DNA from: Longimicrobiales bacterium
GTDB lineage: Bacteria > Gemmatimonadota > Gemmatimonadetes > Longimicrobiales > Gaopeijiaceae
Direction: 5' to 3'
NCBI GenBank assembly: GCA_965238005.1
Contig: OZ250165.1
Span: 1,760,001 to 1,824,000, forward strand
Length of the DNA: 64,000 bases
Made by a program: the position numbers and the translations under genes
Part shown: one piece after another, positions 16,164-47,639 of the stretch
Layout of the letters: each line of letters opens with the position of its first letter
How positions within the stretch are numbered: position 1 is the first letter of the stretch
Notes under the pieces: model-generated
Databases searched by the model: none
The model's input: the letters and a program-made list of their open reading frames with translations, nothing else
What the model was told of the DNA's origin: nothing

Positions 16164-16239
<76 letters not shown>

Positions 16240-17480: not shown

Positions 17481-18939
17481 GAAGCTGTCCCAACCGTAGT
17501 TGAAGGTTCCTGATAGGGGAGAAAGAAAAGTGGTGGCTCCGGGGGTCCCGGGCCGATAGGCTCGGGTAGGCAAAAACCCCAACACGGAGCCACCACGATG
17601 AAGAGAACGTACGAGGTAAGGGATCGGGCGGACAAGCGCGCGATCAGGGAGTTCCTGAAGCGGGAGGGGCAGTTTCTGCTTCCGATGCTTGAGCTCGTGG
17701 AGCAGACGGAGGTCGCGATCGACGAAGTCATCCAGGTGATGGGACGAGCGACGATCGAAGCGGTGCTGGAGATGAGCGCCGAGGGTGTGGCAGGCGTGAA
17801 GCAGGCAGGTCGGTCACGAGCGGAAGACGACACGGTGTGGTATGGCCGGCAGGGTGGTGTGGTTTACCTGTCGGACCGGAAGGTGCGTGTGGAGCGGCCA
17901 CGGCTCAGGCGCCGGGGCGCCGGGGAGGGTGGCGAGGTCGAGGTGCCGGCGTACGCAGCGATGCGGAGACCGGGCGCCGTGGCGGATCGGATGCTCGAGG
18001 TCCTGATGGCGGGGGTGAGCACGCGGAAGTACGGCCGTGTGATCGGTGAGATGGCCGACACGGTCGGGGTGAGCAAGTCGGCGGTGAGCCGTGAGACGGT
18101 CGAGGCCTCGGAGCGCGTGCTGAAGGAGCTGATGGAGCGCCGGCTGGATGCGTGGGACCTCCTGGTGATCTACCTGGACGGGATCCAGATGGGCTCGCAC
18201 CCTTGCTGGTAGTGTCCCTAGATTTGGACTCAGACGGAAAGAAGCACGTGCTGGGCGTGAGGGAAGGAGCGAGTGAGAACGCCGAGGTGACCAGCGCGCT
18301 CCTAGAGGATCTGGTCGAGCGCGGCCTGGACCCGGGCAGGCGGCGGCTGTTCGTGATCGATGGCTCGAAAGCGCTCAGGAAGGCGATCGAGAAGGTGTTC
18401 GGCCAACGTCACCCCATCCAGCGCTGCCGCAACCACAAGCTCCGCAACGTGCTGGGTCATCTGCCGAAGGATCAGCATCCTCAGGTGAAGGCGGCGTTCC
18501 GGGCGGCGATGAAGCTGGACGCGAAGCAGGGCGAGCAGAAGCTCGAGCAGCTCGCCCGATGGCTCGAGCGCGACCACCCCTCGGCCTCGGCCAGCCTACG
18601 CGAAGGCCTCAGCGAGATGTTCACGATCAACCGGCTCGGCCTCCCGCCGCGGCTGAGGAAGTGCCTGGGCTCGACCAACCTGATCGACAGCACCCACTCG
18701 GGCGTAAGACAGAAGACCCGCAGGGTGACCAACTGGAAGAACGGAGCGATGGCCTTGCGCTGGGCCGCGGCCTCGTTCGTGGAGACCGAGAAGAGCTACC
18801 GGAGGATCATCGGCTACGACCAGCTCTGGATGCTCAGGGCCCACCTCGACGACCATGAACCGGTTGCCGAAATGAGAAAGGCAGGCTAACAAGGAGACTC
18901 TCCGGAGCCACCACCTTCAACTGTCAGCGGGACACCATC
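17481..18939 (+). mobile_element. Second IS256-family element, transposase frameshifted
   Basis: IRs GAAGCTGTCCCAACCGTAGTTGAAGG / GATGGTGTCCCGCTGACAGTTGAAGG; 8-bp TSD CAAATCCC at 17473-17480 and 18940-18947. Confidence 0.92.
17598..18889 (+). pseudogene. IS256 transposase, frameshift near 18200
   Basis: Two overlapping ORFs (17598-18212, 18152-18889) with YLDG, IDG, QRCRNHK and STNLIDS motifs. Confidence 0.88.
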
Positions 18940-19193: not shown

Positions 19194-19218
19194 CTATGGA
19201 TGTTAGAAACTACCCTAG

Positions 19219-20820
19219 GAGTCTGCGCCGCAGAAGCACAGCTGACTGAGCCGAATGGTCATCGAGCCGTCCGCGGCGAGGCGGATCCGGGTGATTGGGA
19301 GGTTGAGGACTTGTGTCTGCGACGGATCGGGAGAGCGGAATGGATGCGTTGGGGGGGGCAAGAGAGCTACGAGAGCCCTCGCGCCGGCAGATGCGGGTGA
19401 ACCCTCGTGCAGTCATGCCGCCTGAAGGGTGTGCAGCCGCTTCACATTGAGTGCCAGGCACACGAGGGTCCACTCGGCCCGGACCTTCTCGAGGCCCCGG
19501 AAGCTGAATCGTCGAAAGCCCATCACTTCCTTGATCCAGCCGATGGGCGCCTCGGCCTGCGACTTTCGCCGTGCGTAGCGTCTGCGGCCATCTTCGCTCG
19601 CCAGCTTCTCCGCCATGCGGACTTTCGCCGGATATTCCTCCTTGTCAACCGTGGGGGCGGCCTTGCCCTCCCGGGCCAGCGCCACATACCCGTCGATGTC
19701 TCGCTCTTCCAGTTCCTCGAGATCCCGCTCGTTGCAATAGCCCGTGTCCGCCAGCACCTGCGCCGGCGTCTCGCCGTACGCTTGCGCCACCGCGTCGACC
19801 ATGGGCACCAGCTGGCCCTGGTCGCTCGCGTTGTCCGTCACCTCGGCCCCGACCACCAGCTGGTTCTCCCCCTCCACGACCGTCTGTGCGTTGTAGCACT
19901 GCTGGAACCCCTCCGAACTCGTCTTCATGATCCGGCTCTCAGGGTCCGTGAAGTTGCTCTGCGCCGCCTCGTCCGGCTCTCCGTACTCCCGCTTGTAGGG
20001 CCTGCCGCCCTTCGGGTTGCGCGTCTGCCCCGGCTTGCGGCCCCGTGCGTCGTCCGCCGCTCTCTGCTCGGCTTCCAGGCGCGCCTTCGCCTCCCGGATC
20101 GCCGCCAGCCGGTCCTCGCGCCGCTTGAGCTCCTCCGGCACCTCGTCTCCGCATGCTTCCTCGCCGTAGCGCTCGTCTTCCGCTTCGTCCACCGCCTCGG
20201 CCCTCTCCAACAGCCCCCGGATCTCCGCCTCCAGCCGAGGCTCCCCGGTCACCATCCGGCCGTAGCTCATCGCCTTGCGCTTGTTCGCGTTCGCCCGAAC
20301 CTTCGTCCCGTCCACCGACACCCTGCCAAGCCCCGCCAGCCCCAAGGCCCGCGCGAGCATCACCACCTCCACAAACACCGCCCGGAAATCCCCGAGATGG
20401 CGCTTGCGGAACTCGCACAGCGTCCGGTGCTTCGGGAAGTTCTCCGCCGCCAGCATCCGAAACGCGACATCCTCCTCCAGCTTCCTCGCCATCTTCCGCG
20501 ACGAGAAGGTGCCCGTCGCATACGCGTAGATCAGCACCTTGACCATCATCCGAGGGTCGTACGGCGAGTTGCGCCGCCCGTCCCCCCGGTACCGCCCGTA
20601 GAACGCGCTCAGCTCCACCGCGTCCACCAGGTCGCTCACATGGTGCGCCAAATGACCCTCCGACACCCACTCCCGAAGATCCGGAGGCAGCAACAACATC
20701 TGCTCCGGATCGTACGGTCGAAATGTCGTTCCCATTCACCCCCCTCGGTGATCCGCAAGCCTTCCCAATGCCTTCGCTACCACCAAAGATAGCCGCCGCA
20801 GGGTTCTGCGGCGCAGACTC
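19219..20820 (-). mobile_element. IS1182-family element, copy 1
   Basis: 17-bp IR GAGTCTGCGCCGCAGAA; CTAG duplicated on both sides. Confidence 0.95.
19413..20735 (-). CDS. IS1182 family transposase
   Basis: YDPRMMVKVLIYAY, SSRKMA, VDGTK, TDPESRIMK, QCYNAQ, ADTGY. Confidence 0.93.
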   Translation of the reverse strand: MGTTFRPYDPEQMLLLPPDLREWVSEGHLAHHVSDLVDAVELSAFYGRYRGDGRRNSPYDPRMMVKVLIYAYATGTFSSRKMARKLEEDVAFRMLAAENFPKHRTLCEFRKRHLGDFRAVFVEVVMLARALGLAGLGRVSVDGTKVRANANKRKAMSYGRMVTGEPRLEAEIRGLLERAEAVDEAEDERYGEEACGDEVPEELKRREDRLAAIREAKARLEAEQRAADDARGRKPGQTRNPKGGRPYKREYGEPDEAAQSNFTDPESRIMKTSSEGFQQCYNAQTVVEGENQLVVGAEVTDNASDQGQLVPMVDAVAQAYGETPAQVLADTGYCNERDLEELEERDIDGYVALAREGKAAPTVDKEEYPAKVRMAEKLASEDGRRRYARRKSQAEAPIGWIKEVMGFRRFSFRGLEKVRAEWTLVCLALNVKRLHTLQAA

Positions 20821-21002
20821 CTAGGCGAGGCTGGATGAGTGGTTGGATTTAATGGTCCGTGATCATTCCCAAGGGGTGGTCATCGTCTAAGTGGGTTGCA
20901 GCCTCACACTCCTTGGACGCATGTTGCCCGGCGGTCCAGCATACTGGAGTTGACCCGCTTTGGTGGACACCTCAGTAGTGAGGGAGACAGGAGGAGTCCA
21001 CG

Positions 21003-22376: not shown

Positions 22377-23594
22377 TTATTTACCTTCTTTAAATTTAGC
22401 AGCTTCCTCAGATCCACCGGTTGCGTCACCCTCGCTATAAGAATGTGCTCCAGCTCCTGCAAGCTTTCCGCCTTCTACGATCAGATACTCATCTCGTATC
22501 GGTTTATCATCAAACCAACATTCTAATATTTCCCTAACGCCTGCTGCATATCGAGCTTGAGCTGCGAGTGAAGTTCCAGATGTGTGTGGCGTCATTCCAT
22601 GGTTTGGCATTGTTCTCCATGGATGGTCTTTTGGTGCCGGCTGCGGAAACCAAACATCTCCTGCATAACCAGCCAATTGACCAGTCTCAAGTGCTTTTGC
22701 GACTGCATTGCGGTCACAAATTTTTCCACGAGCCGTATTAACAAGATAAGCTCCATGCTTCATCTTACTAATCATCTCTTCATCAAAAAGATGTTCCGTC
22801 TCAGGATGAAGCGGACAGTTAATCGTAACAACGTCACAGACTTTAACCATCGACTCAACGCTATCATGAACAGTTAAGTCAAGTTCTCTTTCCACGTTCT
22901 CCGGAAGTCTGTGTCGATCGAAATAATGTAGATGTACATCGAAAGGTTTCATGCGTTTTAGCACTGCCAAACCAATCCGACCTGCTGCAACAGTACCTAC
23001 ATGCATTCCTTCAACATCATAAGATCTAGATACACAATCAGAAATATTCCATCCACCCTTGATAACCCAGTTGTATGATGGAATATAATTGCGAACGAGG
23101 CCCAAGATCATCATTACAACATGCTCGGACACACTGATACTGTTGCAATAAGTAACCTCAGTTACAGTAATATCGTTATCGATTGCTGCTTGTAGATCCA
23201 CATGGTCTGAACCGACACCTGCCGTAATGGCCAGTCTTAACTTTGGCGACTTGGCAACTCTTTCTGCAGTTATATAGGCTGGCCAAAACGGCTGTGAAAT
23301 AACAATGTCGGCATCAACAAGTTCTTTCTCTAACACAGAATCTGGGCCATCTTTATCATATGTAACAACAAATGTATGACCGAGATCTTCTACGAACTTT
23401 CGCAGACCTAGTTCACCGGAAACACATCCAAGAAGGTCTCCAGGATTGAAATCTATTGCGTTTGGTGATGGCATTGTTTGTCCATCAGGATAATTAGATA
23501 ACTTGGGAATACCAGGACGGGCGTATTTTGGTGGATATCCATCTACAGGATCATCATATAAGACGCACACAATCTTTAGTTTTTCTTTGACCAT
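22377..23594 (-). CDS. fdh: NAD-dependent formate dehydrogenase (metal-independent)
   Basis: KIVCVLYDDPVDGYP, SQPFWPAY, AAGRIG...YFDRHRL, GYAGDVWFPQPAP, MTPHTSGTSL; markedly AT-rich. Confidence 0.95.
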   Translation of the reverse strand: MVKEKLKIVCVLYDDPVDGYPPKYARPGIPKLSNYPDGQTMPSPNAIDFNPGDLLGCVSGELGLRKFVEDLGHTFVVTYDKDGPDSVLEKELVDADIVISQPFWPAYITAERVAKSPKLRLAITAGVGSDHVDLQAAIDNDITVTEVTYCNSISVSEHVVMMILGLVRNYIPSYNWVIKGGWNISDCVSRSYDVEGMHVGTVAAGRIGLAVLKRMKPFDVHLHYFDRHRLPENVERELDLTVHDSVESMVKVCDVVTINCPLHPETEHLFDEEMISKMKHGAYLVNTARGKICDRNAVAKALETGQLAGYAGDVWFPQPAPKDHPWRTMPNHGMTPHTSGTSLAAQARYAAGVREILECWFDDKPIRDEYLIVEGGKLAGAGAHSYSEGDATGGSEEAAKFKEGK

Positions 23595-23943
23595 TTTTTG
23601 CACCTGTTTATCTAGTTGTGCAGTAGGGATAGGAAAAACAAAGGCCCATTGCCGGATCGGGATAACGTGAGGGCCAGGACCAAGCTGGTCAAGAGGAGGT
23701 CTTGACGAGCGTGCTCACCGCGTCGGTGATCTTCGCGCTGGGGCTGCCGTTGGTGTTGCTCTAGACTCGCAGATCAGCAAGCCGATAACGGCCCTCTAAG
23801 CCACGAGGACGCTCCAGCCTACCCCGAATACCAATAAGGCCCGAAGACGCATAGACGGCGATTCTGGGCGTCAGACGAGGTCTTGCTTGCGCCTACCGGA
23901 CCGCTTTCGGATGTTGACCTCGGTCTGATCCCGGAGTGCGCCC

Positions 23944-24989: not shown

Positions 24990-25147
24990 GTCAGACATCT
25001 CTGATCGGGAAAAAAGGTGATTGGTCCGACAAGGGAGCAAACCCCGTGCCGAGCCGTGAGATCCGCGACAGGTCTTCGTCCTCGCGCGCGTCAGGCCGTC
25101 CCGTGGACGGGCCCATCACTCTGAACAGTACCATTTTCCGGTCCTAG

Positions 25148-26749
25148 GAGTCTGCGCCGCAGAACCCTGCGGCGGCTATCTTTGGTGGTAGCGAAGGCAT
25201 TGGGAAGGCTTGCGGATCACCGAGGGGGGTGAATGGGAACGACATTTCGACCGTACGATCCGGAGCAGATGTTGTTGCTGCCTCCGGATCTTCGGGAGTG
25301 GGTGTCGGAGGGTCATTTGGCGCACCATGTGAGCGACCTGGTGGACGCGGTGGAGCTGAGCGCGTTCTACGGGCGGTACCGGGGGGACGGGCGGCGCAAC
25401 TCGCCGTACGACCCTCGGATGATGGTCAAGGTGCTGATCTACGCGTATGCGACGGGCACCTTCTCGTCGCGGAAGATGGCGAGGAAGCTGGAGGAGGATG
25501 TCGCGTTTCGGATGCTGGCGGCGGAGAACTTCCCGAAGCACCGGACGCTGTGCGAGTTCCGCAAGCGCCATCTCGGGGATTTCCGGGCGGTGTTTGTGGA
25601 GGTGGTGATGCTCGCGCGGGCCTTGGGGCTGGCGGGGCTTGGCAGGGTGTCGGTGGACGGGACGAAGGTTCGGGCGAACGCGAACAAGCGCAAGGCGATG
25701 AGCTACGGCCGGATGGTGACCGGGGAGCCTCGGCTGGAGGCGGAGATCCGGGGGCTGTTGGAGAGGGCCGAGGCGGTGGACGAAGCGGAAGACGAGCGCT
25801 ACGGCGAGGAAGCATGCGGAGACGAGGTGCCGGAGGAGCTCAAGCGGCGCGAGGACCGGCTGGCGGCGATCCGGGAGGCGAAGGCGCGCCTGGAAGCCGA
25901 GCAGAGAGCGGCGGACGACGCACGGGGCCGCAAGCCGGGGCAGACGCGCAACCCGAAGGGCGGCAGGCCCTACAAGCGGGAGTACGGAGAGCCGGACGAG
26001 GCGGCGCAGAGCAACTTCACGGACCCTGAGAGCCGGATCATGAAGACGAGTTCGGAGGGGTTCCAGCAGTGCTACAACGCACAGACGGTCGTGGAGGGGG
26101 AGAACCAGCTGGTGGTCGGGGCCGAGGTGACGGACAACGCGAGCGACCAGGGCCAGCTGGTGCCCATGGTCGACGCGGTGGCGCAAGCGTACGGCGAGAC
26201 GCCGGCGCAGGTGCTGGCGGACACGGGCTATTGCAACGAGCGGGATCTCGAGGAACTGGAAGAGCGAGACATCGACGGGTATGTGGCGCTGGCCCGGGAG
26301 GGCAAGGCCGCCCCCACGGTTGACAAGGAGGAATATCCGGCGAAAGTCCGCATGGCGGAGAAGCTGGCGAGCGAAGATGGCCGCAGACGCTACGCACGGC
26401 GAAAGTCGCAGGCCGAGGCGCCCATCGGCTGGATCAAGGAAGTGATGGGCTTTCGACGATTCAGCTTCCGGGGCCTCGAGAAGGTCCGGGCCGAGTGGAC
26501 CCTCGTGTGCCTGGCACTCAATGTGAAGCGGCTGCACACCCTTCAGGCGGCATGACTGCACGAGGGTTCACCCGCATCTGCCGGCGCGAGGGCTCTCGTA
26601 GCTCTCTTGCCCCCCCCAACGCATCCATTCCGCTCTCCCGATCCGTCGCAGACACAAGTCCTCAACCTCCCAATCACCCGGATCCGCCTCGCCGCGGACG
26701 GCTCGATGACCATTCGGCTCAGTCAGCTGTGCTTCTGCGGCGCAGACTC
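25148..26749 (+). mobile_element. IS1182-family element, copy 2 (inverted relative to copy 1)
   Basis: Same IRs, 1602 bp, CTAG at 25144-25147 and 26750-26753. Confidence 0.95.
25233..26555 (+). CDS. IS1182 family transposase
   Basis: Protein identical to 19413-20735. Confidence 0.93.
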   Translation: MGTTFRPYDPEQMLLLPPDLREWVSEGHLAHHVSDLVDAVELSAFYGRYRGDGRRNSPYDPRMMVKVLIYAYATGTFSSRKMARKLEEDVAFRMLAAENFPKHRTLCEFRKRHLGDFRAVFVEVVMLARALGLAGLGRVSVDGTKVRANANKRKAMSYGRMVTGEPRLEAEIRGLLERAEAVDEAEDERYGEEACGDEVPEELKRREDRLAAIREAKARLEAEQRAADDARGRKPGQTRNPKGGRPYKREYGEPDEAAQSNFTDPESRIMKTSSEGFQQCYNAQTVVEGENQLVVGAEVTDNASDQGQLVPMVDAVAQAYGETPAQVLADTGYCNERDLEELEERDIDGYVALAREGKAAPTVDKEEYPAKVRMAEKLASEDGRRRYARRKSQAEAPIGWIKEVMGFRRFSFRGLEKVRAEWTLVCLALNVKRLHTLQAA

Positions 26750-27451
26750 CTAGGACTCCTTTACGACCTCGATCGAGCCTGTGATGGCAGCCTCGATCCC
26801 CGACTGGTCGGCAGGATCATTGGGATCGAGCGTACCGCCGCCGGACCCGACGAACCACTGGCTCAGGTCGAAGTCCAGAGACACGAGAGTGACGAGTATA
26901 TCATCCTCCGTGACGCTGAGTGGCGTGGCGAACGCCAACTCCATATCGATGTCGAGCGGAGCCGTGAACTCGAAAGCTTCTGGCGTGCCATTCCGAACGA
27001 CCTCGCCGGTGACCAAGACGCTGGCATCTGCCAACGAAGGCCAGAGGTCGATCAGGGCCTGCTCTTCGGGGTGGCCGATCTCAAGCTTGTCGATCGAGAC
27101 TTCGAGTTCCTTGTAGATGCCGGACGGTACGTCCGTATCGAACGCCAACGTCGGCTCCCCTGCCAGATCCAAGGGGATGACCACGGACCTCTCGAAGATC
27201 CAGTCCACGGTCTGATCGAGCCCTGCGGTCTCCAGTTTGAGGCCACCCAGGACGAGGACGGCTTCACCGATCTCGATCGACGTAATGCCAGGTGCCAGCA
27301 TCGGACCGCTTGCGGTGGCGGGTGCCGATGTTTGTGAGACCCGGACCTGGACTTGGAGCTGATGCTGGCCGGTTGGGCCAACAGAATCTGAGCATCCGCC
27401 GATGAGGGCGGACCCAAGCACGACGTAGGCTGACGGTCGGCGCAGTCTCAT
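26750..27451 (-). CDS. Putative lipoprotein
   Basis: MRLRRPSAYVVLGSALIGGC lipobox; acidic beta-rich body; TAG stop coincides with the IS target CTAG. Confidence 0.7.
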   Translation of the reverse strand: MRLRRPSAYVVLGSALIGGCSDSVGPTGQHQLQVQVRVSQTSAPATASGPMLAPGITSIEIGEAVLVLGGLKLETAGLDQTVDWIFERSVVIPLDLAGEPTLAFDTDVPSGIYKELEVSIDKLEIGHPEEQALIDLWPSLADASVLVTGEVVRNGTPEAFEFTAPLDIDMELAFATPLSVTEDDILVTLVSLDFDLSQWFVGSGGGTLDPNDPADQSGIEAAITGSIEVVKES

Positions 27452-32965: not shown

Positions 32966-33775
32966 GTGAGGCACCATACTCCCGAGGATCGCGAGTTCTT
33001 CGTGGAGCGGTACGGCCGACCGATCTCAGATGCGGCGCGGAAGCTTGAGCGAGCGGTGTTCGGGCACGAGGTTGGACTAAACGGATTCACTACCGTCGCT
33101 CAGGCTCACCGTCTCTCCGATCTGCTTGAGTTGGGGTCCCAATCAACCTTGCTGGACGTCGGCGCGGGGCGTGGGTGGCCGGGCCTCTATATCGCGCGGT
33201 CAAGCCAGTGTCGAGTCGTGTTATCTGACATTCCGATCGAGGCTCTCCGGCAAGCTCCATACTACGCAGAACAACAAGGAGTCGCCGGGCTGGTGAGCGC
33301 CGTTTGCGCGGACGGCGTGGCTCTGCCCTTTGTCCCTGCCTCTTTCGACGCACTGGTCCATACGGACGTGCTGTGTTGAGCCCAAGACAAGCTCTCCGTG
33401 CTGAGAGCGTGTCGCGAAGTTACCAAGCCGGGCGGGCGAATTGGTGGGTATACGATTCACACGCCGAGCGGTCTCGATCGAGATGCAGCGAAACGTGCGT
33501 CGGAACTGGGACCGAGCGAGGTAGGTGCCGGTCAATCACCGGCCGATTTACTCCGAGCGGCCGGTCTTGTGGTGTACGTCGACGAGGACGTGACCGATGC
33601 ATTCCACGAGAGTCTCGAAGCATTTCGAGCTGCAATGGATGAGCTGGAGGACGACTTGCGCCGCGAAGAGGGCGACGCCGTTTTCGAGGAGTGGCAGGAG
33701 AGGCGAACCAACATGGTTCAAGGGGTCTCGGAGGGGCTACTGCGGCGGTCACTTTTGGTAGCGGTTAAGGCATAG
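32966..33775 (+). CDS. Class I SAM-dependent methyltransferase with in-frame TGA (candidate selenoprotein, DVLC-U)
   Basis: LLDVGAGRGWPG motif I, ADGVALPF...FD, then DVLC-TGA(33377-33379)-AQDKLSVLRACREVTKPGGR in the same frame; 269 aa on readthrough. Confidence 0.8.
33386..33413 (+). promoter_or_regulatory. Putative bacterial SECIS hairpin
   Basis: GACA-A-GCTCTC-[CGTGCT]-GAGAGC-G-TGTC; 17 nt between UGA and the loop; G at loop position 2. Confidence 0.6.
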
Positions 33776-45580: not shown

Positions 45581-45666
45581 GAGCCCCTCTCTCTGCGGAT
45601 GAAGTCGGGTGAGCGGATTCGGCGACGGGAGCTGAACTCACTTTCCATGATATGCCGGTGCCCTAG

Positions 45667-47267
45667 GAGTCTGCGCCGCAGAAGCACAGCTGACTGAGCC
45701 GAATGGTCATCGAGCCGTCCGCGGCGAGGCGGATCCGGGTGATTGGGAGGTTGAGGACTTGTGTCTGCGATGGATCGGGAGAGCGGAATGGATGCGTTGG
45801 GGGGGCAAGAGAGCTACGAGAGCCCTCGCGCCGGCAGATGCGGGTGAACCCTCGTGCAGTCATGCCGCCTGAAGGGTGTGCAGCCGCTTCACATTGAGTG
45901 CCAGGCACACGAGGGTCCACTCGGCCCGGACCTTCTCGAGGCCCCGGAAGCTGAATCGTCGAAAGCCCATCACTTCCTTGATCCAGCCGATGGGCGCCTC
46001 GGCCTGCGACTTTCGCCGTGCGTAGCGTCTGCGGCCATCTTCGCTCGCCAGCTTCTCCGCCATGCGGACTTTCGCCGGATATTCCTCCTTGTCAACCGTG
46101 GGGGCGGCCTTGCCCTCCCGGGCCAGCGCCACATACCCGTCGATGTCTCGCTCTTCCAGTTCCTCGAGATCCCGCTCGTTGCAATAGCCCGTGTCCGCCA
46201 GCACCTGCGCCGGCGTCTCGCCGTACGCTTGCGCCACCGCGTCGACCATGGGCACCAGCTGGCCCTGGTCGCTCGCGTTGTCCGTCACCTCGGCCCCGAC
46301 CACCAGCTGGTTCTCCCCCTCCACAACCGTCTGTGCGTTGTAGCACTGCTGGAACCCCTCCGAACTCGTCTTCATGATCCGGCTCTCAGGGTCCGTGAAG
46401 TTGCTCTGCGCCGCCTCGTCCGGCTCTCCGTACTCCCGCTTGTAGGGCCTGCCGCCCTTCGGGTTGCGCGTCTGCCCCGGCTTGCGGCCCCGTGCGTCGT
46501 CCGCCGCTCTCTGCTCGGCTTCCAGGCGCGCCTTCGCCTCCCGGATCGCCGCCAGCCGGTCCTCGCGCCGCTTGAGCTCCTCCGGCACCTCGTCTCCGCA
46601 TGCTTCCTCGCCGTAGCGCTCGTCTTCCGCTTCGTCCACCGCCTCGGCCCTCTCCAACAGCCCCCGGATCTCCGCCTCCAGCCGAGGCTCCCCGGTCACC
46701 ATCCGGCCGTAGCTCATCGCCTTGCGCTTGTTCGCGTTCGCCCGAACCTTCGTCCCGTCCACCGACACCCTGCCAAGCCCCGCCAGCCCCAAGGCCCGCG
46801 CGAGCATCACCACCTCCACAAACACCGCCCGGAAATCCCCGAGATGGCGCTTGCGGAACTCGCACAGCGTCCGGTGCTTCGGGAAGTTCTCCGCCGCCAG
46901 CATCCGAAACGCGACATCCTCCTCCAGCTTCCTCGCCATCTTCCGCGACGAGAAGGTGCCCGTCGCATACGCGTAGATCAGCACCTTGACCATCATCCGA
47001 GGGTCGTACGGCGAGTTGCGCCGCCCGTCCCCCCGGTACCGCCCGTAGAACGCGCTCAGCTCCACCGCGTCCACCAGGTCGCTCACATGGTGCGCCAAAT
47101 GACCCTCCGACACCCACTCCCGAAGATCCGGAGGCAGCAACAACATCTGCTCCGGATCGTACGGTCGAAATGTCGTTCCCATTCACCCCCCTCGGTGATC
47201 CGCAAGCCTTCCCAATGCCTTCGCTACCACCAAAGATAGCCGCCGCAGGGTTCTGCGGCGCAGACTC
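45667..47267 (-). mobile_element. IS1182-family element, copy 3
   Basis: Same IRs; CTAG at 45663-45666 and 47268-47271; only about 3 differences from copies 1 and 2. Confidence 0.95.
45860..47182 (-). CDS. IS1182 family transposase
   Basis: Protein identical to the other two copies. Confidence 0.93.
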   Translation of the reverse strand: MGTTFRPYDPEQMLLLPPDLREWVSEGHLAHHVSDLVDAVELSAFYGRYRGDGRRNSPYDPRMMVKVLIYAYATGTFSSRKMARKLEEDVAFRMLAAENFPKHRTLCEFRKRHLGDFRAVFVEVVMLARALGLAGLGRVSVDGTKVRANANKRKAMSYGRMVTGEPRLEAEIRGLLERAEAVDEAEDERYGEEACGDEVPEELKRREDRLAAIREAKARLEAEQRAADDARGRKPGQTRNPKGGRPYKREYGEPDEAAQSNFTDPESRIMKTSSEGFQQCYNAQTVVEGENQLVVGAEVTDNASDQGQLVPMVDAVAQAYGETPAQVLADTGYCNERDLEELEERDIDGYVALAREGKAAPTVDKEEYPAKVRMAEKLASEDGRRRYARRKSQAEAPIGWIKEVMGFRRFSFRGLEKVRAEWTLVCLALNVKRLHTLQAA

Positions 47268-47639
47268 CTAGGTCTCGTCCAGCGGCTTCCTTCGAAGCGA
47301 CTTTCGAGCAGAGCGCTGTCGCTTGGCCTGGAGGCGGCGTTCGTGGGCGCTTCGAGGAACTCGTGTGGGTATACGACGCTTCGGACGTCTTTGCGAGACC
47401 GCTAACTTTCTGCGAAGTGCTCGCAGTGCGGCCTTCCTGTTCTCATGCTGGCTTCGGAGGCTCCGGCTGGTCGCGACGGTGCCGCTCGGTATGTGGGTGA
47501 GGCGCACGCCGCTGTCCGTCACGTTCTGGTGCTGCCCGCCCTTGCCCCCGGACCTGAACGTGTCGACCCGGCACTGGTCGATGAGCTCGTCGTCCGATTC
47601 CGGAATCGGAACCAGGGGATCCGAACGGTGTTCAGCCAT
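47268..47639 (-). CDS. Peptide chain release factor-like protein (ArfB/YaeJ-like ribosome rescue)
   Basis: [14 protein letters not shown] motif, RSQHENR, basic C-terminal tail. Confidence 0.85.

Follow-up and report, generated by a model that had tools for sequence, protein, structure and literature searches.

A predicted selenocysteine-containing class I methyltransferase with a vicinal Cys-Sec dyad in a Longimicrobiales bacterium

The gene, its in-frame TGA and the downstream hairpin

The window analyzed here is a 64,000-nucleotide stretch of contig OZ250165.1 from a Longimicrobiales bacterium (assembly GCA_965238005.1, positions 1,760,001 to 1,824,000), and its subject is a methyltransferase gene that a single TGA appears to divide in two. 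Two open reading frames (ORFs), 32966..33379 and 33398..33775, lie in one frame with the TGA at 33377-33379 as their sole separator. As the first-pass annotation of this DNA had seen, the TGA stands right after a Cys codon and neither half has any other lesion. The complete gene (32966..33775, plus strand) has 269 codons, a GTG start and a TAG stop at 33773-33775, and the read-through product, ...FDALVHTDVLC-U-AQDKLSVLRACREVTKPGGR..., runs to 269 residues with no further lesion up to that TAG. We propose that this is one intact gene for a selenocysteine (Sec)-containing class I S-adenosylmethionine (SAM) methyltransferase, in which the UGA at 33377-33379 would be decoded as Sec at codon 138, a reading to which we assign a probability of about 0.88 from the sequence evidence.

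The assignment to the class I SAM methyltransferases is based on scores above the Pfam gathering cutoffs, a GxGxG motif I, an acidic residue ending strand beta2, and a Rossmann-like fold. The read-through protein is matched by Methyltransf_11 (PF08241; 7e-14, 52.6 bits with a cutoff of 21.2) and by Methyltransf_25 (PF13649; 8e-13, 49.3 bits with a cutoff of 27), both over residues 63-159 and both spanning the TGA, and the piece downstream of the TGA taken alone has no Pfam match. The SAM-binding motif I (LLDVGAGRGWPG, residues 62-73, 33149..33184, plus strand) is placed by the alignment and by the structural model. An exact look-up of the two ORF fragments in the protein collection found neither of them, a result that says nothing about how pipelines call the gene.

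The predicted Cys137-Sec138 dyad (33374..33379, plus strand) is encoded by TGT at 33374-33376 and the TGA at 33377-33379, and a hairpin resembling a selenocysteine insertion sequence (SECIS) lies inside the coding sequence at 33386..33413 (plus strand), where it is indicated by fold, codon and comparative evidence. Its lower stem is formed by GACA (33386-89) and UGUC (33410-13), its upper stem by GCUCUC (33391-96) and GAGAGC (33403-08), with a flanking A and G next to the upper stem, and its apical loop is CGUGCU (33397-33402). The hairpin begins 6 nt past the TGA, the upper stem begins 11 nt past the UGA, and 17 nt separate the UGA from the loop, which confirms the element as first described, GACA-A-GCTCTC-[CGTGCT]-GAGAGC-G-TGTC with a G as the second loop base. 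For the 28-nt hairpin the folding energy is −13.3 kcal/mol (z = −3.47), a value reached by one of 200 shuffles. In the mechanism that we propose, this mRNA hairpin downstream of the UGA would act as a bacterial SECIS that recruits SelB with its Sec-tRNA(Sec); the host has genes for both.

The SECIS of Escherichia coli fdhF, with its 11-nt rule and its G and U loop bases, provides a comparison. Like elements of that type, the methyltransferase hairpin lies in the coding sequence directly 3' of the UGA, its upper stem begins 11 nt past the UGA, and its apical loop has a G followed by a U. It differs in that the hairpin has another sequence with no bulged U evident, and in that the spacing becomes 14 nt for the first UGA in those homologs, described below, that have Sec-Sec or Sec-Cys in place of Cys-Sec.

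The TGA column, the hairpin and the selenocysteine machinery among homologs

A search of the protein collection returned 279 homologs at E ≤ 0.001, the best of them about 270 residues long, uninterrupted and 48% identical or less, a set biased against TGA forms, which gene callers would truncate. The idea that homologs would have Cys at the position of the TGA was borne out by an alignment of 40 proteins: at least 90% of them have Cys in column 138, as part of the motif HTDVLCC. The preceding C137 never varies, and D64, G66, G68, G70, W71 and P72 of motif I and also D88 are invariant in the family alignment.

A six-frame search that reads through stops was carried out on the host and 60 relatives at E ≤ 1e-20. 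It found the methyltransferase gene in 10 of the 61 genomes, and all seven carriers in the host's family (six genera plus the host) have one TGA at the identical column, in the context D[VA][LF]C-TGA. When one genome per species was scanned, 153 relatives were confirmed and the best 80 kept; of the 90 loci scanned in all, 82 have the dyad motif (80 distinct genomes) and eight lack it. Three sister-family sequences (L038-L040, E about 1e-38, no stops) were rejected as family members on the absence of the motif. The 82 motif loci comprise 41 Cys-Sec, six Sec-Sec (TGA-TGA), two Sec-Cys and 33 Cys-Cys (CC) forms; these proportions are not prevalences, since a Sec-type query served to rank the loci by similarity and one of the search patterns favored CC forms. 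The 49 Sec-type loci represent 47 distinct genes, as two pairs are duplicate fetches of the same genomes (L032=L045 and L033=L042), and the TGA is at the second column of the dyad in 47 loci and one codon earlier in two more. Conservation of the TGA, which the first-pass annotation had named as a check, is seen in 49 of these 82 loci, and these belong to four phyla, namely Gemmatimonadota, Acidobacteriota, Chloroflexota and Actinomycetota, and the CC forms are found mainly in Pseudomonadota with some in Actinomycetota.

The tandem TGA (Sec-Sec) forms are six Chloroflexota genes (L051:4379-4384, L054:4379-4384, L064:2177-2182, L065:2443-2448, L067:4403-4408 and L077:681-686). They and the two TGA-Cys genes, L061 and L086, have the same single hairpin, located 14 nt from the first UGA. 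It would be unusual for a single bacterial SECIS to serve two Sec codons in tandem.

The hairpin accompanies the TGA. All 49 Sec-type loci have a near-invariant hairpin, GCUCUC-[CGUGYU]-GAGAGM, 11 nt past the TGA, and in 45 of the 47 genes with TGA at the dyad's second column the upper stem GCUCUC/GAGAGM pairs at five or six of its six positions, with a CGUGYU loop. Among 35 genes with Cys at this column three pair at all six positions, and two of these are L061 and L086, in which the TGA lies one codon earlier and the hairpin is identical. The CC genes L068, L094 and L099 encode the identical peptide KLSVLR by other codons and have no such stem. The same separation is seen codon by codon. The Arg codon in the 3' arm is AGA in 43, AGG in four and CGA in two of the 49 Sec-type genes, whereas the 20 CC genes with Arg at this position use CGG (12), CGC (seven) or CGA (one), so that AGA or AGG is used by 47/49 Sec-type genes vs 0/20 CC genes; AGA represents 3.4% of Arg codons in the host. 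The hairpin Leu codon is CTC in 49/49 Sec-type vs 8/21 CC genes, and the Ser codon is TCC in 48/49 vs 1/5. The synonymous sites of the hairpin thus appear to be frozen only where the TGA is present. In metagenome contigs of other species, the match to the window is confined to the Cys-TGA-hairpin stretch at 33374-33407, and the loci of relatives, when compared with the window by blastn, were often aligned only around that same stretch. The window also encodes a tRNA-Arg with anticodon TCT (16164-16238, plus strand), the decoder of the rare AGA codon that is fixed by the predicted SECIS stem.

The first-pass annotation had pointed to selA, selB, selC and selD in the host genome as bearing on its proposal, and all four were found. 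The genome (4.84 Mb, one contig) encodes SelA (556 bits), SelB (328 bits), a tRNA-Sec with anticodon TCA, and SelD (371 bits), which has its own in-frame TGA (GAG-U-ASK). The host also has an FdhA with one TGA (RI-U-HSP) and, outside the window at about 1349-1351 kb of the host contig (G000:C1), a Sec peroxiredoxin (FFFRARTRG-U-TIQM). The elements past the UGA in these genes are N8-GCUCGG-[CAUGU]-CCGAGC for selD, N15-GCGUAC-[CGUGAUCA]-GUACGC for the peroxiredoxin, N14-GGCCA-[GUU]-UGGCC for fdhA and N11-GCUCUC-[CGUGCU]-GAGAGC for the methyltransferase, and judged by sequence the four hairpins appear to follow one common design. The peroxiredoxin loop begins CGUGAU, as do methyltransferase loops (CGUGCU/CGUGAU), and that of selD is CAUGU; the common loop bases may be a lineage-specific SelB recognition motif. 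Among the relatives, selA was found in six of the seven TGA carriers, and it was above cutoff in all five Sec-Sec carriers that were searched, of the six found.

TGA is also the host's commonest stop, ending 1219 of the 2222 open frames longer than 400 codons, and it is therefore an ordinary stop in this genome. This bears on the possibility that suppression or local recoding, and not Sec insertion, lets the UGA be read as Trp, Cys or Gly. In the closest database homolog, P0002 (48% identity; from a contig of 1417 nt), the Sec column holds Trp (VLCW), yet the Sec-type peptide KLSVLR is retained; the codon behind this Trp may really be TGG, or it may be a TGA that the source's gene caller rendered as Trp. 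Cys can also replace Sec under selenium limitation in some systems. Such a decoding is nevertheless improbable in the extreme, as it would have to operate on the commonest stop of the host, the hairpin fits the design of the selD, fdhA and peroxiredoxin elements, the carriers have selA, and homologs have Cys, the usual counterpart of Sec, at the aligned position.

A further alternative is that the TGA terminates translation and that the gene is split, yielding a 137-residue N-terminal fragment, perhaps together with a 125-residue product that starts from the GTG at 33398. That GTG is usable as a start and the corresponding Val codon is conserved in the Sec forms, and some termination product is to be expected in any case as Sec insertion is never fully efficient. 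However, the break would lie within the Rossmann fold, past beta4 and ahead of the following helix, where no uninterrupted homolog is split, the conserved GTG belongs to the hairpin loop, the TGA column is that of a conserved Cys, and the Sec machinery of the host is complete. We give a split gene almost no weight.

A single base change turns either Cys codon (TGT or TGC) into TGA, and the surroundings are rich in insertion sequences (ISs); a mutation of this kind in a gene that is dead or dying must therefore also be considered. One copy does look degraded and is probably decaying: three TGAs lie in the region in L035 (G005:C14), whose match stops at profile position 222 of 272. On the other hand, the same TGA is present in 49 of 82 loci from four phyla, and 47 of these 49 genes have no other stop within ±125 codons, the exceptions being L035 with its extra TGAs and L046 with one stop. 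The hairpin and the fixed codons accompany only the TGA. Over the half after the TGA, Sec forms have a mean pairwise identity of 0.42 and Cys forms one of 0.40, and in 15 related pairs of Sec forms, hand-picked from the tree, the ratio of non-synonymous to synonymous substitution rates (dN/dS) is 0.07-0.39 for the upstream and 0.10-0.44 for the downstream half; for the window gene and L041 the values are 0.13 and 0.26, respectively. The half downstream of the TGA therefore appears to be under purifying selection. An independent metagenome study yielded a contig of 507 nt that reads across the unchanged TGA and has no indels. For the family, these comparisons contradict loss of function as an explanation, and for the window gene we consider it very improbable.

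Several results lend no support to decoding as Sec or weigh against it. Population variants drawn from four metagenome runs comprise six synonymous and 14 non-synonymous changes, about equally distributed on either side of the TGA. Drawn from few, low-depth, mixed contigs, they are too scant to count for or against; the lack of a clear synonymous excess is also what a pseudogene might show, and stretches of the gene that single runs leave uncovered carry no meaning. No selA was found in one carrier, G009, a 78%-complete metagenome-assembled genome. Rfam gave no SECIS model over 33300-33520 at E ≤ 10, the two hits being chance matches outside the hairpin. The fold of the 64-nt context is unremarkable (z = −1.1, matched by 32 of 200 shuffles), and for this reason we regard the comparative evidence, the same TGA column and hairpin in 49 of 82 motif loci, as decisive. 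RNAalifold, applied to 42 aligned Sec forms, recovers only an invariant 5-bp core, CUCUC/GAGAG, with compensatory changes at none of the five consensus pairs, as would follow from synonymous sites that are frozen in the TGA genes. The RNA evidence is consequently one of sequence conservation and not of covariation. The hairpin that the first-pass annotation had expected to covary is kept in TGA carriers and lost in CC forms, but its stem does not covary and is invariant in sequence. Taken with the Cys/TGA column, the hairpin in the TGA carriers and the Sec genes of the host, which together support the earlier proposal of a 269-residue selenoprotein methyltransferase with a Cys-Sec dyad after beta4, we conclude that this is very probably a genuine selenoprotein gene.

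Active-site position of the dyad and possible functions

An AlphaFold2 model of the protein (predicted local distance difference test, pLDDT, 91.2; predicted template modeling score, pTM, 0.89) places C137-U138 in a loop right after strand 127-131, and has strand E61-65 followed by a loop at SAM motif I. The nearest solved folds identified by Foldseek (probability 1.00 to methyltransferases) have template modeling (TM) scores of 0.66-0.79 normalized by the query, and include phosphoethanolamine N-methyltransferases (PMTs), a putative sarcosine/dimethylglycine methyltransferase, RebM, AtmM, TleD and MitM. For the RebM/AtmM/MitM/PMT group the TM scores are 0.71-0.79 at 16-27% identity, and the best sequence matches likewise are to this group, with E values from 1e-21 to 1e-27.

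In profile alignments the Sec column coincides with a His in MitM (IIHM), in AtPMT1 and AtPMT2 (TILHIQDK) and in RebM, where by residue count H140-H141 match C137-U138. The substrate-facing position that was first suggested for the dyad is borne out by this alignment with the active-site His of RebM, MitM and AtPMT1/2, from which it appears that the family has exchanged an active-site His for Cys or Sec. We take His132 of PfPMT to be the equivalent of U138, and the two RebM histidines have reportedly been mutagenized; a literature search on RebM His140/His141 found nothing relevant. PDB titles list the PfPMT mutants H132A, D128A and Y19F, and Tyr-19/His-132 of this enzyme is named the 'catalytic latch' in a passage of a secondary source (PMC10084581). 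The methyltransferase family described here therefore shares with RebM, AtmM, MitM and PMT (PDB 3bus, 6uv6, 8zc8, 5wp4, 3uj*) the active-site loop after beta4 and the C-terminal lid, and differs from RebM, MitM and AtPMT, none of them selenoproteins, in having Sec or Cys at the column where they have His. By alignment and fold, the vicinal Cys137-Sec138 after beta4 thus sits where RebM, MitM and the plant PMTs keep their active-site His, next to the methyl group of SAM.

If Sec is in fact inserted, we would tentatively suggest that the methyl acceptor is thiophilic, namely a metalloid, a thiol or a selenol. The Cys-Sec dyad would hold or activate such a soft methyl acceptor (As, Sb, Se, Te, or a thiol/selenol), and the low-pKa selenolate would allow a faster step than in the CC forms. 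A different role, which again presupposes Sec and which we regard as nearly as probable, would be that of a redox switch, in which a selenenylsulfide gates activity, or of a methyl-Sec relay, with an ordinary organic substrate in either case. Thioredoxin reductase shows that a vicinal Cys-Sec pair can form a selenenylsulfide, the nearest folds are those of natural-product and phosphobase methyltransferases, and a metal-resistance neighbor is missing at most loci, all of which fit this role. Against it, the CU dyads of listed bacterial selenoproteins are mostly associated with metals or organometals (SaoL, SaoC, HgcA and MbdU; PMC13188914), and ArsM-family, ArsR-rhodanese and metallo-beta-lactamase (MBL)-rhodanese neighbors recur in a subset of loci.

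The gene neighborhoods are variable. An ArsM-family methyltransferase is adjacent in 11 of the 82 loci, with 191-228 bits on NF008823 (cutoff 263), scores that are low partly through truncation; the other recurrent neighbors are an MBL-rhodanese fusion (eight loci), a major facilitator superfamily (MFS) transporter (six) and an ArsR-rhodanese regulator (five). The ArsM-family neighbors hint at a metalloid or thiol substrate. The largest neighbor cluster is an antisense shadow ORF of the methyltransferase gene itself. Locus L069 has the same-strand order MFS, MBL-rhodanese, ArsM-like and methyltransferase.

The ArsM-family gene of L069 (L069:3167-4000, plus strand), directly upstream of the methyltransferase, itself ends at an in-frame TGA. 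Reading through gives DLWSG-U-IAG, which has the UxxG motif listed for Sec-ArsM (review Table 1, PMC13188914). A second TGA follows 56 codons later. This gene has Gly and Thr at SNGVINL and GTGNP, presumably the positions where canonical ArsM has its other Cys residues.

Some observations weigh against assigning a function from the dyad. The third invariant Cys of the family, C82, is at the N-terminal end of beta2 and, to judge from the fold topology, probably away from the active site. No neighbor is common to more than 11 of the 82 loci, and Pfam searches of 20 window ORFs gave nothing on function. For a natural Cys-form homolog, a protein atlas gave generic methyltransferase names only.

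Relation to known selenoproteins, evolution and genomic setting

Methyltransferase selenoproteins are a known kind, represented by ArsM, MduS, MTase/UXPK-star, ArsM fusions and Ada-type MGMT. No NCBIfam model (release June 2026) reaches its cutoff with the family described here, the best being NF045667 (DVU_1556 methyltransferase) at 44.4 bits vs 155. The models of ArsM fusions score 26.9 vs 510 (NF041537, ArsM/AhpD) and 20.6 vs 575 (NF041536, ArsM/DUF2284) on protein P0001, and NF008823 (ArsM) is not among the P0001 matches at E ≤ 0.001; those of MduS (NF045649) and MTase/UXPK-star (NF047649) score 24.2 vs 380 and 32.6 vs 460, respectively. Sec-ArsM (NF008823, UxxG) and its fusions are similar to the family in being class I SAM methyltransferase selenoproteins with a Sec/Cys pair near the active site, and differ in belonging to another subfamily and, for Sec-ArsM, in having Sec in a C-terminal UxxG and not in a CU dyad after beta4. 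The Cys pattern that we take to be typical of ArsM is not matched. MduS and MTase/UXPK-star are likewise methyltransferase-domain selenoproteins that were spotted through truncated gene calls, but, going by the entries in the review table, they have CxxU or UxxG motifs and two Sec residues elsewhere, as opposed to the vicinal CU, UU or UC seen here. SaoL, SaoC, HgcA, MbdU and KCU-star share with the methyltransferase a vicinal Cys-Sec and routine truncation in gene calls, according to the relevant passages of PMC13188914 and bioRxiv 10.1101/2022.07.06.499078, and differ in having unrelated folds and families and in occurring mostly in anaerobes.

No class I methyltransferase with a CU dyad is among the 119 families and subfamilies of Table 1 in a May 2026 review (PMC13188914). 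No such methyltransferase family is described in the accessible portions of PMC9312934, PMC2398784, PMC12013277, PMC13326102 and the Actinomarina preprint, and the available text of the deep-Sep paper and of BSepDB does not mention 'methyltransferase'. Literature searches likewise turned up no account of the family. According to an excerpt of PMC2375036, an algal 'Methyltransferase' selenoprotein (Ostreococcus, Thalassiosira) has a homolog among bacterial selenoproteins; it may or may not belong to the same family, and the parts seen of the 2005 and 2007 bacterial papers did not decide the matter. On balance, we lean toward the view that the family, which seems to be absent from current selenoprotein lists, is truly undescribed.

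In an IQ-TREE phylogeny of 81 rows (L046 was dropped for its stop; midpoint root only) the Sec forms occupy three deep clades, one 24-row clade is entirely Sec, and the tree requires three to four Sec/Cys switches. A single origin of the Sec form would be the simpler reading because the same hairpin sequence is found in all Sec clades, and the Sec form may be ancestral to the CC forms now in Pseudomonadota. Within the host's family the gene is present in seven of 37 genomes, the host (G000) included; within the host's genus, G002 has it too, and it was not found in G001 (95% complete).

The methyltransferase gene is accessory and lies in a variable region rich in ISs, and its flanks have nothing in common with the loci of relatives. 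A 1.61-kb repeat occurs three times in the window, at 19214-20825 (plus strand), 25143-26754 (minus strand) and 45661-47272 (plus strand), and the whole genome has about 63 copies, which are at least 99.6% identical. It carries a 461-aa ORF, which has no Pfam or PHROG match, and a 440-aa antisense ORF, and it is probably a very active IS of unrecognized type. A Mutator-family transposase at 17598-18889 (plus strand) consists of two overlapping ORFs that cover profile positions 17-169 and 184-376 of 379, and is likely to be frameshifted. PHROGs, applied to 11 nearby ORFs, gave one weak terminase-like match just upstream (phrog_9, 3.5e-7). Local GC is 0.595 vs 0.648, and in the window the segment 22001-24000, which covers a D-2-hydroxyacid dehydrogenase gene (22377-23603, minus strand), has a GC of 0.496 (elsewhere 0.60-0.67), which suggests foreign DNA. 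The tRNA-Arg(TCT) gene at the edge of the IS-rich region is a possible integration site. The first-pass annotation had placed the gene on a mobile island, and this is no more than plausible: the IS-rich surroundings, the weak terminase match, the lower GC and the lack of synteny with relatives agree with it.

Standard gene callers would split the gene at the TGA and no NCBIfam model would rescue it, so that the same misannotation is to be expected in many genomes. If confirmed, this would be a large new family of prokaryotic selenoproteins from phyla that selenoprotein surveys have hardly covered (Gemmatimonadota, Acidobacteriota, Chloroflexota and Actinomycetota), and it would place Sec at the catalytic position of a very common fold in which related enzymes have His. 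The most far-reaching version, a phylogenetically broad and undescribed selenoprotein family in which Cys-Sec (or Sec-Sec) replaces the catalytic His and the selenolate binds a metalloid or relays a methyl group, is speculative, as is the accompanying suggestion that its hosts belong to largely aerobic soil and sediment phyla. If true, it would represent selenolate chemistry new for the RebM/PMT-type fold. The replacement of His by Sec would make possible a direct test of a selenolate beside the methyl group of SAM, and the tandem UGA-UGA forms would be a natural test of the way in which one bacterial SECIS serves two adjacent Sec codons.

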